Assembly: GCA_046563655.1 (NCBI GenBank) | Contig: CM102290.1 | Span: 434,001 to 498,000, forward strand | Source: Yuukianura sp. NJ FZ-2021 | Taxonomy: Eukaryota | Length of the DNA: 64,000 bases | Direction: 5' to 3' | Part shown: positions 28,983-36,740 of the stretch, one piece after another | Layout of the letters: each line of letters begins with the position of its first letter | Numbering within the stretch: position 1 is the first letter of the stretch | Made by a program: the position numbers and the translations under genes | The notes under the pieces: generated by a model | What the model saw: only the letters and a program-made list of their open reading frames with translations | Databases searched by the model: none | What the model was told of the DNA's origin: nothing

Positions 28983-31673
28983 ATGGATTGGTCGACAAAG
29001 CGAGTGCTGTTATGTCTGCTGCTCAACATCGGGTTGTTACTGACCGGTCCTTGTCAGCTGACTCATGGAAATGTTGACGATTCTGAGGCAGAAGTAAGTT
29101 GGGATGTTGGGAATTGTAAATACAGACTACAGTGTGTTAATAGTCGACGCTGTTTCCCTAATCTTTCCATAGGTTACCGTTGAAAACGATGATACGGAAG
29201 TTGCGGACGATTACACAAGCCCGGAGCCATCTGACCCATCAGCTGTCTACTTCCATGAGAACTTCGACGACGTTGATACCGCCGAGAAGAAGTGGGTTAT
29301 CTCTCGAGCGCAAAAAGAAGATCAACAAGGTGCAAAATACGAAGGACTGTGGTCATTCCAATTGCCTCAACGAGTTCTGTTCAACAATGACCGAGCGTTA
29401 GTGCTCAAGTCGAAGGCAAAACATGCTGCTATTTCTGCGAAGCTGAATCGTCCGTTCAAGTTTACGACAAAGCCACTTTTGGTACAGTATGAGGTTACCT
29501 TTCAAAACGGAATGGATTGTGGAGGGGCATACATCAAACTGCTGTCACAGTCGGACAAGTTCGAGTTGGATAAGTTTACGAACAAGTCTCCATATACCAT
29601 CATGTTTGGCCCTGACAAGTGTGGTAACGATCACAAGGTAAATTATTGACCTCTTACGTCTACGTTTAGCTTATAAATGTGTTAAATCTGTCTTACTAAC
29701 TAACTATGTTTGTTTTTGTTTAGCTTCACTTCATTTTCCGTCACAAAAACCCAATCACTGGTGAGTTTGAGGAGAAACATGCTCCAAAACCTTCGAGTCG
29801 CCTTGAGGAATCTTACACCGACAAGAAGCCACACTCGTATCTCTTGAAATTGGTAACTTATTTTAAAAACGTTTCATTTGTTGACCTTTTTTGATCGATT
29901 TTTCTGTTCTGAACAGTATCCCAACAACAACTTTCAAATTTATGTGGATGGGAACCTCGTTAGCAATGGAAACCTTCTGGAGGACATGTCGCCTCCTGTA
30001 AACCCTCCAGCTGAAATCGCCGACACAAAAGACTCCAAACCCTCAACTTGGGATGATCGAGAGAAAATTCCGGATCTTACGACTACGAAACCAGACGATT
30101 GGGATGAAGATCTGCCTGCCATGATTCCAGATCCTAACTCTGTTATGCCAGAGGGATGGCTGGAGGACGAAGAGGTGAGTCCTACATGGCTTAACTCAGT
30201 TCCTTATGCTGTTATGCTGATCATAAACTTCAAATTGATGTCTTTTCAGCCTATGATTGATGATACGACTGCACAGAAACCAGATGATTGGGATGACAGT
30301 ATGGACGGTGATTGGGAACCACCGAAGATCAATAATCCGCTTTGCGCTAATGCTCCTGGATGCGGTGAGTGGACGCCTGCCCAAATGCCAAACCCAGAGT
30401 TCAAAGGTATTCGGTTTACGATAAAACGAAGTTACTATAGCTGATTTTCAAAATTTTGAAAAACTTCAAATAATTTTTTGAAATTAGGCAAGTGGAAACC
30501 CCCAATGATTCCTAATCCAGAGTACAAGGGACAGTGGAGTCCACGGATGATTCCAAATCCTGCCTATTTTGAAGATAAGGAGCCGTTCAAGATGACACCA
30601 ATTGTAAGCCAATACTTTTTTTAATCATCTGTCATATACACTATAATTACTTTTACTTTTTATCTCCAGGGCGCCCTCGGTATTGAACTTTGGACAATGA
30701 CTGATCAACTTCTGTTTGACAATTTTATCATCACTGATGAAGAGAGCGTTCTGGACCACTGGATCTCTCGAACATATGATCTCAAGCGACGTGTTTTGGA
30801 CAAAGATGCGGTAAGTTTCACTATCACATTACAAAATGTTATCATAAATGACTTTTTAGTGGACAAAACCTTCAGAGTTCTTATTACGGAACGTTGATGC
30901 GGAAAATGAATTACCATGTTGGAGCATGGACTGTGTACTTTTTCTATGTCACTATCCCGCTTGTCTCCTATGCCTTGTACTTGTGGAATCTTTACCTCGA
31001 GGTAACTAATTGGATTCATAACTAATGATTTTTTGTACTTTTGTGCTTTAGGAAAGTGTTGTGAGTCGTATATTCAATTACACGAATGCCCATCCATGGC
31101 TCTGGGCAGTATATTTGGTCGTGATTGCCTTACCAGTAGTGCTCATTCTCACCTTCTGTTGCGGCAGTAGTCAGGTATTTAGTCAACACAGTTGATGTTA
31201 CGCACAGTTTATTAAAAATGTTAGTTTTTAAATCAATTTCTTAGATTTGTAATGATTCTGGTTTGGATTTAGGAAAAACGTGATGCTAGGACCAAAAAGA
31301 CTGACGAGTATGTGAAGGACGATGAGCCGGAAGTTGCTGAAGAAAAAGTGGAGCCCCAAGAACCAACGGAGCCTGTCGCTGCTCATTCCTCTTCTTCGCG
31401 TTCTAGTCGCACTGATCCAGATAAGGAGAAGTTGGAGCTGGACGACGGGGCAATGGGTGACGTTCAAGGCGAGAGCGAAGAGAGTGACGAGGATTCGGAT
31501 TTCAATGAGGCCACCACTGAATCGGAAAACGAAGGGCCAGCAGTACGCAAGGTAACGCGTCAACTAATGGTAGTTAACGTTAACTTTTTAATTTTAACTA
31601 CAATTAGTGACTAATTAACTTTATTCAATTGCAGGGTTCCCCTCCGAAACGTCGGACCCAACGAGCTGACTAA
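28983..31673 (+). CDS. CANX: Calnexin
   Basis: Signal peptide, [41 protein letters not shown]-domain KPDDWDE repeats, WLWAVY transmembrane segment with CC, KKTD and an acidic tail ending RRTQRAD*. Confidence 0.97.
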
Positions 31674-32378
31674 AAATCAAAACCCAACCAGTCCACATAC
31701 ACACTACAATTCGTCAACATCAAACCAAAAATTTGTTTTTCAATGAGTTAATTTGTCGGCCCAAACTTCACTTGAGTATTATGAAGCTTGGCATAAATAT
31801 TTATTTGAATTAGATTTAAACTTTTGCAAATGAGGGACTGTAAACAGGAGAGGTAATGTTTTAGTTAAAAACTAGGGGATGTGTACCCGTTTTCCAATTT
31901 GTTTTTTTGTTTTGAACTTTGGTATAAAAATGTTAGTGTTAAGGTTAGTTAGAAATGCATGGAGTATGAGCAGCTAATGAGTATTTATTGAATATGCTAG
32001 TGCTCATAAGCTGTTTAACTCAAAGGAAAACGTTAAGTTGTTGCCTGGCATTTCTCAATTAGCACCGATCAATCTCAACCTCGTGCATTTCATTTGTTAT
32101 GGCCCCTAAATATGTAATTAATTGTATAAATTAATTAAATTTAACAAATTGTTTCAACAGGGGAGCTGCTCTGGTTCAATTTAACGTTAGTCATACTTTA
32201 GTCAATGTTGGGTCTAAGTTTGTAGGTTATGTTAGGTAAACAGTAAACAGTTCAACTGCATTTGATCTGCAAAAAAGTTTATTTTCGCAGTTTATCTAAA
32301 GTGATTTAGAGTAGTTCTCAGGCGACATTAGTTTAGGAGACAACTTGGCCAGTATTTTTGCTTGATTGTTAAGTTTTC

Positions 32379-34236
32379 CTAAACAGCTTGAGATTCTAGA
32401 GAAGATGCTGGCAGTACTGGCTGATTTTGCTTTTTCCTTAAAATGTTGGTGATGAAGAATTCGCCAGCTTTGTAGGAGCTGCGCACGAGTGGCCCACTGG
32501 CAGTATACAGAAATCCTAGTTCGTCGCCCATCTTGCCCCAGTAAGAAAACTTTTCTGGAGTGACGTACTCGACTACTTTCAAATGTCGTTTCGTTGGTTG
32601 CATGTATTGACCCAAAGTTAGACAGTCAACGCCGACACTTCGTAGATCTGCAAACAACATTCGCAGAATTGCAAATTAAATGTTGCACTATATAGCGAAC
32701 AATTATTGTTGAAGAATTTGCAAAAAATTACCTTTCATGGTTTGCAGAACTTCGTCGTCAGTTTCTCCCAATCCAAGCATGATTGAAGTTTTAGTGAGAA
32801 TCGAAGGCTTGAATTCTTTGGCATGTTTTAGCACACTCATTGTTTGCCTGGACAAAATAAAGTCAGTCAGTTCCGAAAGTGACTAAAATGATCAAAAATG
32901 TATGTCAGATGTGAATTTACCGATATTTTGCACGCGGATCTCTCACAAACGGAGTAAGACGTTCAACTGTTTCAACATTATGGGCAAAAACATCCAATCC
33001 TGAGTCGACTACAGCCGAAACTTGATCGAGATTCCCACGAAAGTCGGGTGAGAGCACCTCCACCAATAGTTTCGGCACGTCCTGCTTCAGATGTCGTACA
33101 GTTTCGGCAACATGTTTCGAACCCCCGTCCGGTAAATCATCTCGATCCACTGACGTTAGAACGACGTAGTCCAGACCCCATGCTCTGATGGCTTCGGAAG
33201 TATTCTTCGGTTCGTTGGGGTCAAGTGGTGGTGGAGCTCTGGAGGTCTTCACGGAACAAAACCGACATCCGCGAGTACAAGTATCTCCCATGAGCTAAAA
33301 ATTTAACACAATCAATTGATTTAGTAAGGCAGAAAAAAATCGACGACTTACCATGATCGTGGCTGTGGCGACATTATGTTCACCACCACCCCAACATTCA
33401 CCGATGTTTGGACAACGAGCCTCTTCACAGACTGTATGAAGGTTGAGACCCCGCAGATTCTCTTTCAGTTTAGCAAAGTTCTTTCCAACTGGAATTTCAG
33501 TTTTGAGCCATGGTGGTAACCTTAGCCGTTCGTAGTCTCCGGGTTCTCGTTTCAGTTTTTCTAAATAACAAAAAATAGCAAGTATGAAACACATTTAGTA
33601 GTGTATAAAAGTGAACATTTTTGAATTTGGGAAGTTGTGAAGTTAGTACGTGGAGGATTTTCGTCATGGACTTCGATGTCAATTAGTGGTTCTCCGACGA
33701 GCGAAATCTGGTCCAAGTCGTAATGAATTTTGCGAACTACTCCGCTATACCGTGACTTCAAAGTTACACAGGAATCTTCACTGTGCACTTCACAAACAGG
33801 GTCAAACTTGGATACTTTATCTCCCTCTTTGACGAACCTAACCAATCGAACAAAGAAAATTCTAAGTTGTAAATATTGTCGTTGTCGTTTTTTGTCTTAC
33901 CATTCTTTGATTCTAACTTGAGTAACTCCTTGGCCAATTTCTGCTAGTTTGAAAGGTACCACGGCTAACCTAGGGGCTGCCGAATGAAAATGCGAATATT
34001 GGTATCTGAAACATGTTCGACTCTCCAGCCTCATATCACTGATTGCTCGGTTTCTAGCTCCAAGTCCTCGCAGTTCTTTACTCAGCACAGTAACCTAAAT
34101 CCAACAAGATTCAAACCAACATTTCATAAAAACTACTTAGATACAAAACGGTTTAAAAATTGATTGAATTTGTTACTGTTCGATGTGCTTGAAGTGTTCT
34201 AGTAGAATTCAGTGCACAGCGGAATATGCAGACCAT
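32379..34236 (-). CDS. LIAS: Mitochondrial lipoyl synthase with an N-terminally fused BCKDH-E2-like lipoyl domain lacking the acceptor Lys (~469 aa)
   Basis: Exons 34236-34177, 34094-33901, 33837-33650, 33560-33352, 33294-32921, 32847-32732 and 32647-32379 total 1410 nt in one frame. Motifs [12 protein letters not shown] (auxiliary cluster), CTRGCRFC (radical SAM) and RSSY are intact. The LIAS identity is secure; the fusion is inferred from splice phase. Confidence 0.9.
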
Positions 34237-34914
34237 TTTGTTGGGGTCAGTCGATCCAGAAAATCTAGATTGTGTTTCAAATCTGTTTAAAATCAATTGA
34301 AAGTGAAATTCATAGGCAATTTTAGTGACTTCTGACTTACGGAAGGTTAACCGGATCAGCTGACGAGATGAAATGCTGGACGTGATGAAAGAGAGTGGAT
34401 TTACACGGCAATGAAGACAGCTAGAAAGTAGAGGTCAAGGGTCAAGTGACCCACACTCTGTATGAAGAAATCATCAGTGTTTAGTGTGTTATCTTTATCA
34501 AGTTTCACTGCAGAAAAGACATTCTAAAAACATTAAATACAAGTCAGCTGATCCGATTTTTTCAAAATGTGGGACGGCGGTTTGCAGAGAACAAAAAAAA
34601 ATCATATTTTTGAGGAATTTTATTTTTAGATTTTATTTTTATTTTCAAAAAAAGAGAAAGTGATTCTTTTTTTGTTTTGTTTATTTCAAGGTCTTCCCTG
34701 TCAGTATTTCGAGGGAGGAATCGATGGAACTCAACATTCGTGGCAATTCTGGAGAGATGTAGTACGATCTACATTGTAAGTATTTGTAAAAGTCAGCAAC
34801 AATTAATTAACAAGTTCAGTGGTAAACTATGTTTTTATGTATTTCGTCTTTAATCTAGGTGACGACTGATGTGCTGTTGAACTGAAGCCCAGCCAGTTCT
34901 TGCAACTTGCTGAA

Positions 34915-36740
34915 ATGGAAAATGAAGTGGAAGCTCTGGGGGTGTTCACTGCCGAATGTCAACAACTTCTATCTCAAATCCAGAATGGTGTCATCAGGAA
35001 CAGGCCACCGGAAGTATCTTCCTCCTCTCCAAGAGTTACTGGAATGTTTAGCAGGGCATGGGACAAGTTTTCACAGACACATCAAAGTTCACCCACCAGA
35101 ACAAACAACAACATTTCCAATCGCTACAACTTCCAACACTACAGAAGCAATCAGAAGAAGGATACTTCCACCGTAGGAAAACTGAGACTGGCAGCACAAG
35201 GAATCACTTTGGCCAAATTAAGTATTTTTCTGAACGTCTTGGAACTGTGCCTCATGATCTCCATGTCTCTGATAATCTTTTACGTGATAATCGTTGTTCA
35301 TAAACCAACTCAAGCCTTAATCTCCAGACACACACAAGATCTAATCTATCCAGTCATGCGTGGACTCAGACTTACTACGTTACCTGTCATTAGAGTATTT
35401 CCCTGGATTTCGGGTAATGCCAATACTTGTTGCTTACTAGTACAGTATTTTCTCGTACATAGTACGCCCTCGCGTGTTTAATACGCAGTTTTAAATTTTC
35501 GTAAAACACTGTAAGTTAACATTAGAAATTAACATGTTACGAATGTAATGAATTTAAGCTTGCTTTTCGCTGAAACAAAAACGTTTTTTATTACATATTT
35601 TCTGAATTTTTGTAAATAATACAGGAATTATGTGCGAGAAAATACGGTATTTATTTTCTTGAGTCTGAAATATCTTTGTTTTTCGTTTCATTCCAGAGTT
35701 CTACGAGGAGGATTGCCTAATCACAAATCCCAACTATTTTAGCAAGAGTTCGTACGAATGCTGGCCCTGCGAGGACTCGAAACAAGTTATTGATGTGACT
35801 GGGATATCCAATTTCTCAAGTATTTTTCAACATGGTGGGATTCCATTCCGTATCCGGGTAAAACCGTTCAACTCGATTACTCCATTTCAGTCTTTGAACT
35901 TATGATGTTTGGTTTTAGCAGAGCACAAAGGAATACGACTTCACGATAATCGAGAAAATCTACTTGGAAAATACACATTTATTTCAATCGGTGACTCTGA
36001 GTTCTAACCAACGCCACATTCAAACTTTTGCAGACATCTTTCCACTCAATCGTACAAAAGTTTTCCGTCGGCATCCTAATCTCCATGTTGCTTGGTAAAT
36101 TTCTTTTAGACGCAACACTTTCGTCAATACTATACTTAATTTTTCCACCAAAACGTCGTTTCGTTCATGTTTTTTTTTTTTTAGGAAAATCAACAAAGTG
36201 GCTTATGCTAGGTATCTTCGGAAGTATTTTTCAAAACCGTACATTATTCCAAACACAACAGAAGTATCAATCCAGCGCTTCCTCTTCCTGGACAATCATG
36301 ACTCGCCACAGTACTCCATCGTTAGTACAACTTTTACATTAGTATTGAGAAATTGAAATTATCGGCTTTTGAGTTCACTGATTTCGAAATCCAGAAAGTT
36401 TCGAAACAGAAAGCACTTTACGTTACACTTTTTTTTGCAGCCATTTACCGAATTTGAAAACGTTTTCCTGTTCCAAGCTGGTGGGCGTCGTCGCATTGTT
36501 CTCGTTCCAACGGAAACTTGTTACAAGAAATGTCGAGTGATCTCCATCGTTCTTCAGCCAGGAGACGTTTGTAAGCAGTTTCATTTAAGTCAATTAACGT
36601 TAGTCAGTTAGTGAATGTAATTACTTTCTATAGTGTTCTACAACTGGCTATACTGGCGACCACAGTCTCTACCAATCAAGTCTTCCAAACTACACTCCAG
36701 TGATAGCATCAGCGTCAGCTACGTCGGTAGTTTCTACTGA
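34915..36740 (+). CDS. C6orf89/BRAP (bombesin receptor-activated protein)-like type II membrane protein
   Basis: A transmembrane segment is followed by LRLTTLP, DCLITNP...CWPC and LVPTETCYKKCRVISIVLQPGDVLFYNWLYW. These match the C6orf89 pattern as I recall it (IRLMSLP; PPFQCRRHC...EPGD...W). Confidence 0.7.

Follow-up and report, generated by a model that had tools for sequence, protein, structure and literature searches.

A candidate chimeric lipoyl synthase with a lysine-less, DBT-type lipoyl-like domain in Yuukianura sp. NJ FZ-2021

The lipoyl synthase LIAS is a single-copy, highly conserved enzyme, and its recognition of substrates, the protection of its sacrificial iron-sulfur cluster, and the hand-over to E2 complexes are all active questions. 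Here, we analyzed a locus at which the coding exons of a LIAS core are preceded by exons for a lipoyl-like domain of the type found in DBT, the branched-chain E2 protein. The locus is located in a 64,000-nt stretch of Yuukianura sp. NJ FZ-2021 (assembly GCA_046563655.1, contig CM102290.1, positions 434,001 to 498,000 of the forward strand), hereafter termed the window, and all coordinates below count from its first letter. Specifically, the gene in question lies on the minus strand from 34236 to 32379. We consider it probable that this is a single fused gene, restricted to its lineage, in which a predicted splice across intron 3 would yield a chimeric LIAS with a pseudo-lipoyl domain at its N-terminus.

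The closest described system for the catalytic half is human LIAS. In the portions of the structural account drawn upon here (PMC12246082), the active construct that was crystallized comprises aa 65-372, with residues 66-110 wrapped around the H protein as a belt. The same portions describe the CX4CX5C, CX3CX2C, and RSSY motifs as ligating the two clusters of LIAS, with the serine of RSSY being a ligand of the auxiliary cluster. All three motifs were present in the translation of the locus examined here. Exon 4 (33560-33352) encodes the N-terminal domain of LIAS, including the CX4CX5C motif for the auxiliary cluster, matched Pfam LIAS_N (E 1.4e-23, covering profile positions 52-96 of 96), and aligned with human LIAS 8tsk_A from chain position 66 onward (E 3.1e-32). 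It is followed by exon 5 (33294-32921), which contributes the radical-SAM core with CX3CX2C, exon 6 (32847-32732), which encodes further radical-SAM core, and exon 7 (32647-32379), which encodes the C-terminal part with RSSY and ends with the stop codon TAG; exons 5 and 6 matched Pfam Radical_SAM with E-values of 4.8e-14 and 0.0044, respectively. Under the assumption that chain position in 8tsk_A equals residue number, the whole catalytic core would be present in exons 4-7, and the exons placed ahead of it would have replaced only the presequence and a segment that, judging by the human construct as described in those portions of the account, is dispensable for catalysis in vitro. On these matches, exons 4-7 encode a complete, bona fide LIAS core, whose predicted activity is the insertion of sulfur into an octanoyl-lysyl carrier protein.

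The LIAS half of the gene is constrained and expressed. One metatranscriptome contig (X7) covers 33499-33352 and joins exon 4 to exon 5, while another (X8) joins exons 5, 6, and 7. Both were 100% identical to the window, with introns 4, 5, and 6 removed exactly at the modeled borders. With respect to constraint, exonic variants in X1, a set of DNA contigs that possibly stems from the source sample itself, were synonymous at 6/6 sites, and one difference in X5, an independent DNA source, changed Ser to Asn in exon 6. Within exon 5, X1 also had two contigs of 151 nt each at 33004-33154 (depths of 97 and 124) that differed at five sites, all synonymous, which suggests that a heterozygous individual or a pool contributed two haplotypes. 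Additionally, in tblastn searches, related LIAS proteins began to match 7 nt upstream of the exon 4 acceptor, at 33561-33567, where the LIAS frame reads Y-L-E before KLKRE and relatives read Y-K-G. The ancestral exon may have been longer and left this trace, or the match may be due to chance.

The complete gene model comprised seven exons that together amount to 1410 nt in a single frame (469 codons and the TAG), separated by six introns that were all of the GT..AG type and between 57 and 89 nt in length. An earlier, sequence-only reading of this DNA had given the same exon coordinates, phases, and total length in one frame, and all of these were reproduced when recomputed. Exon 1 (34236-34177) begins with the ATG at 34236, supplies the first 20 codons of a presequence that is basic and without acidic residues, and ends at a GTAACA donor in phase 0. 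The remaining leader is encoded by exon 2 (34094-33901), as is the initial strand of the lipoyl-like domain; this exon ends in KEW with the Trp codon split as TG/G. The bulk of the domain, including the changed acceptor position, is encoded by exon 3 (33837-33650), which ends in a short linker. The proposed intron 3 (33649-33561) starts with the donor GTACTA and closes with the acceptor TTTAG. It had been described as an 89-nt GT..AG gap in phase 1, and this description held in all of its details: C and AA join across it to form a Gln codon, and a TACTAAA branch-like motif and, after it, a T-rich tract precede the acceptor, the motif by approximately 35 nt. The leader of 64 residues contains 11 K+R and 3 D+E, with 4 K+R and 0 D+E in its first 26 residues, a composition that fits a mitochondrial presequence. 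A scan of the minus strand from 34236 to 32379 for AATAAA or ATTAAA returned none, and, reading on from the start codon, the first poly(A)-signal hexamer of this strand is the AATAAA at 32278-32283, 96 nt beyond the LIAS stop.

The identity of the N-terminal domain was established largely from exon 3. By itself, this exon matched Pfam Biotin_lipoyl PF00364 (E 2.8e-9, 37.1 bits vs a cut-off of 22.1), and its best match among solved structures was the lipoyl domain of human branched-chain E2, 1k8m (E 1.1e-18), in agreement with the resemblance to DBT that had been pointed out before. The last 20 residues of exon 2 aligned with residues 4-23 of 1k8m, although weakly when taken alone (E 1). A HMMER search with exon 3 across 1.84 billion representatives recovered 843 proteins at E up to 1e-3, and the best 150 of these, to which identity was at most 61%, were used for a comparison of individual positions. 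At the position of the lipoyl-acceptor lysine, as placed by the 1k8m alignment, exon 3 encodes Asp, a change that the sequence-only reading had passed over. The aligned residue was Lys in 173/173 segments, and in 150/150 when one best segment was taken from each of the best 150 of the 843 relatives. Moreover, the tip of the hairpin reads H-S-E-D-S-C, where relatives have Q-S-D-K-A-S, and the Thr that lies six residues past the tip is replaced by Lys, a residue found there in 0/150 of the best relatives. At eleven positions, the domain lacks a residue that at least 80% of relatives have, and these departures clustered around the hairpin. Positions of the fold core were kept, including the invariant glycines and the Asp, Phe, Cys, Glu, Val, Ser, Arg, Tyr, and Pro.

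Because the acceptor Lys is replaced by Asp and the hairpin tip is remodeled, the domain is a lipoyl-domain fold that is unable to take octanoyl or lipoyl at the canonical site, and it is not a tethered substrate. The domain had previously been termed a substrate-like module tethered to the enzyme. This term is apt for the fold, given the Biotin_lipoyl match, and fails for a role as substrate, given the Asp at the acceptor position. With regard to what surrounds the domain, it had been proposed that the locus holds neither a separate LIAS leader nor the E2 subunit-binding and acyltransferase domains, and our searches of the window concurred. No trace of the canonical LIAS N-terminal segment was detected in the 64 kb by tblastn with five LIAS proteins. 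Likewise, no further E2 domain was detected by tblastn in the 64 kb, in which a 510-residue E2 (P0002) matched via its residues 37-151 only, with its other segments at E >0.4.

Two DNA contigs extend across the join between the two halves of the gene, and one of them made it possible to evaluate constraint on the lipoyl-like exons. The longer, from X1 (9091 nt), covers 33125-34800, through the junction. The other, from X5, came from a differently labeled organism (organism B) and a different study; it is 579 nt in length, covers 33493-34071 with 0 gaps, and has one end in exon 2 and the other in LIAS exon 4, with intron 2, exon 3, and intron 3 in between. In the region 5′ of the gene, the sequence from organism B also had insertions of 8 nt and 1 nt (34572-34592). 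Of the 11 differences between the X5 contig and the window, nine are listed and the other two, near the contig ends, are unclassified; among the listed differences, one falls in intron 3 (33623) and the remaining eight are in exons 2-3, where 8/8 were synonymous in the frame of the model. One of these was in exon 2 (33954) and seven were in exon 3. In the other two frames, the same eight differences were synonymous at 1/8 and 0/8. With a chance synonymous share of 0.23-0.29, the probability of observing 8/8 is ~7e-6 to 4e-5. This pattern indicates that exons 2-3 are translated in the model frame and are under purifying selection, and the frame of the lipoyl-like part is open across 148 codons.

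The X5 differences were also unevenly spread. At 33651-33798, exon 3 (188 nt) had 7 synonymous sites vs 4 sites in the 309 nt of covered introns (2, 3, 5, and 6), such that synonymous divergence appears several-fold above intron divergence. An old haplotype, a conversion tract, or chance could each account for this excess.

Several observations weigh against a single fused product. The RNA contigs cover parts of 33499-32611 only, and introns 1-3 and the junction 33650/33560 fall outside of this coverage; the RNA came from two metatranscriptomes in which the organism had small shares, rendering missing cover over exons 1-3 uninformative in either direction. The donor of intron 3, GTACTA, is the weakest in the gene, in which the five other introns all start with GTAA, and five donors in the neighboring gene, read by eye, comprised four GTAA and one GTAT. 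Within intron 3, the LIAS frame is opened by an ATG at 33594 that immediately follows a stop codon, and the unspliced lipoyl frame terminates at the TAG at 33563-33561, making two separate or alternative products formally possible. Among relatives, PF00364 was found in 0/120 of the close LIAS proteins listed, LIAS in 0/150 of the best 150 of the 843 lipoyl-domain relatives, and a LIAS fusion in 0/52 of the loci confirmed from 596 pattern matches in a metagenome scan with exon 3. An intact DBT and a further LIAS were sought in the 64-kb window only, and the two unclassified differences in the X5 contig belong on this side of the balance as well. The locus could accordingly comprise a truncated, DBT-derived gene for a stand-alone, lysine-less lipoyl protein of ~176 residues, ending at the TAG at 33563-33561, plus a separate LIAS starting from the ATG at 33594; the latter would have an internal promoter or be translated from a dicistronic message that retains the intron, and the fused form could coexist with these as a second isoform. 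Purifying selection on exons 2-3 would suit such a stand-alone domain protein equally well. We nonetheless regard this arrangement as unlikely, although it is the most probable of the rival readings. Animal LIAS needs a mitochondrial presequence, and the N-terminus that starts at ATG 33594 is hydrophobic and unlike one, with 0 K+R in its first 12 residues and 4 acidic residues in its first 26. The two open reading frames would overlap by 34 nt, and there is no poly(A) hexamer upstream of the LIAS coding exons. The 89 nt between them also have the character of an intron: their length is within the range of the gene's introns, their GC of 0.27 compares with 0.26-0.33 for the other five introns and 0.41-0.50 for the exons, and they share the TACTAAAT motif with intron 4, the removal of which is confirmed by RNA. 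Furthermore, if the read-through frame were translated, the difference at 33623 would replace Gln with Glu and so be non-synonymous, albeit at a single site. As to the donor itself, the GT at 33649 is the sole one in 33720-33562 that joins exon 4 in an open frame, with the other two phase-1 GTs creating TAA.

Two other arrangements for producing LIAS from this gene were rejected. Skipping from exon 1 or exon 2 straight to exon 4 yields stops, and there is no in-frame ATG in the LIAS frame between 33560 and the CX4CX5C auxiliary-cluster motif, which led us to reject trans-splicing or an operon-type downstream LIAS. It might also be argued that exons 2-3 are a decaying fragment of DBT, serving at most as a donor of 5′-UTR or leader, and that working LIAS is made elsewhere or via an undetected upstream leader exon. 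The loss of the acceptor lysine, the 11 positions at which at least 80% of relatives share a different residue, the absence of the arrangement from the relatives compared, and the restriction of the search for a second LIAS to the window would all be compatible with this. We find it improbable in light of the exons themselves, which retain an open frame over 148 codons, differ synonymously at 8/8 classifiable sites, and preserve the invariant fold-core residues, with changes concentrated at the hairpin tip. It also fits poorly with the LIAS copy at this locus, which is expressed, properly spliced, and retains all cluster motifs, with its X1 polymorphisms synonymous at 6/6 sites. An erroneous assembly join of a DBT 5′ end to LIAS, which the sequence-only reading had named beforehand as grounds for refutation, is contradicted by the X1 and X5 contigs, both of which are continuous across the junction, with the latter being independent and free of gaps; nothing was found in its favor, and we consider such an artefact very remote. 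Thus, a single fused gene, with intron 3 removed, is the reading that we carry forward below.

Searches for precedent returned the expected separate proteins. The 52 metagenome loci were all ordinary E2 lipoyl domains, the best with 55% identity to exon 3, and a word-based search with exon 3 among longer proteins gave two matches out of seven candidates, both of which were ordinary E2 (50-56% identity). At two bacterial metagenome loci, LIAS was located 3.7-4.1 kb from an E2 lipoyl domain, unfused. In the literature, searched mostly by titles and abstract openings, no account of a natural fusion of lipoyl synthase with a lipoyl domain was found. The statement in the sequence-only reading that no such fusion had been described in animals is thus consistent with the protein, metagenome, and literature searches, each of which is by nature unable to prove absence. 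Finally, the position of the intron after KEW (KEW/F) could be compared in two E2 loci only: L001, which is eukaryote-like, is without an intron there, and L003 has a 45-nt in-frame insertion. The latter (L003:162-1055) is on an AT-rich metagenome contig (GC 0.36) and encodes an E2 lipoyl domain with 15 extra in-frame codons right after the matching Trp. This insertion may be an intron at the site of intron 2 in the window.

The gene is flanked on both sides. A calnexin/calreticulin-family gene occupies 29173-31614 on the plus strand, in a tail-to-tail arrangement with LIAS. Matches to Pfam Calreticulin came from two of its exons (8.4e-45 and 3e-52), and the best named relative of an exon of this gene was from the springtail Allacma fusca (54%). 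On the other side, an open frame of 203 codons at 34870-35481 on the plus strand, with no Pfam match, is head-to-head with the chimeric gene and lies ~630 nt from its ATG. This frame and the chimeric gene may share a bidirectional promoter region.

With respect to how the fused gene arose, we infer exon capture as its history. The 5′ end of a DBT gene would have been duplicated, and the copy, with its promoter region, its presequence, the exons of the lipoyl domain, and the splice donor that follows them, would have been captured ahead of LIAS. There it would have replaced the LIAS presequence and N-terminal segment, the latter of which is probably dispensable, judging by the active human construct. 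The donor at 33650, inherited from DBT, would now be spliced to the acceptor at 33560. The resulting product of 469 residues would consist of a presequence, a lipoyl-like domain, a linker of ~7 residues, and the complete catalytic core of LIAS. Once captured, the domain would have lost its acceptor lysine, while keeping its fold and remaining under selection. In this scenario, the import signal for mitochondria would be supplied by the captured part, as expected from the composition of its leader, the sole presequence-like one here. The lysine-less domain would act as a non-modifiable docking or pseudo-substrate module beside the carrier-binding belt, a role that is the most economical guess because the domain is constrained and lies ~7 residues from the belt. 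We suggest only tentatively, and with considerable doubt, that this animal LIAS took up the lysine-less domain to serve in cis for docking or as a pseudo-substrate.

If this suggestion is right, the domain could act as an auto-inhibitor that controls entry to the active site, or it could shield the sacrificial cluster. Alternatively, it could dock LIAS onto E1, E2, or lipoyl-transfer partners with an affinity for lipoyl domains and thereby shift the distribution of lipoate among the mitochondrial complexes. The protein would then be the first natural cofactor-building radical-SAM enzyme with a dead copy of a client domain in cis. More broadly, a LIAS with a non-modifiable, client-type domain would be a natural probe of how the lipoyl fold docks on the synthase, and the chimera would test for the existence of pseudo-substrate control in cofactor assembly. 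For gene evolution, the locus would represent a clean arthropod case of gene birth through exon capture, in which the promoter, import signal, and first domain of the donor were swapped in for the N-terminus of the acceptor gene. Even if the intron 3 splice were unused, the locus would still hold a constrained, lysine-less, stand-alone lipoyl-like protein, itself unusual.

When compared with known systems, the two halves of the predicted protein each have clear counterparts. With human LIAS (8tsk/8ugo; a radical-SAM enzyme, EC 2.8.1.8), the gene shares the alignment from position 66 onward and all of the cluster motifs. The closest LIAS proteins, P0004 and P0008, the latter from the springtail Orchesella dallaii, were 85% and 82% identical over exon 5, respectively, with other arthropods close behind. 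Both carry the canonical N-terminal segment, which ends just ahead of the point at which exon 4 starts, whereas the chimera has the DBT-type lipoyl-like domain in its place. With the DBT lipoyl domain (1k8m/1k8o), the likeness extends to the best structure match, a PF00364 score above the curated cut-off, and the fold-core residues, and the leader ahead of the domain is of DBT-like length, as compared with the E2 protein P0139. In contrast to the DBT domain, which has the acceptor Lys, the copy in the chimera has Asp, within a tip changed from Q-S-D-K-A-S to H-S-E-D-S-C. Moreover, whole DBT continues after its lipoyl domain with a subunit-binding domain and an acyltransferase (2-oxoacid_dh) core, and the chimera is without both. 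The novelty of this locus is hence the putative placement of a lysine-less, lipoyl-like N-terminal domain on a known LIAS core, in one lineage so far.

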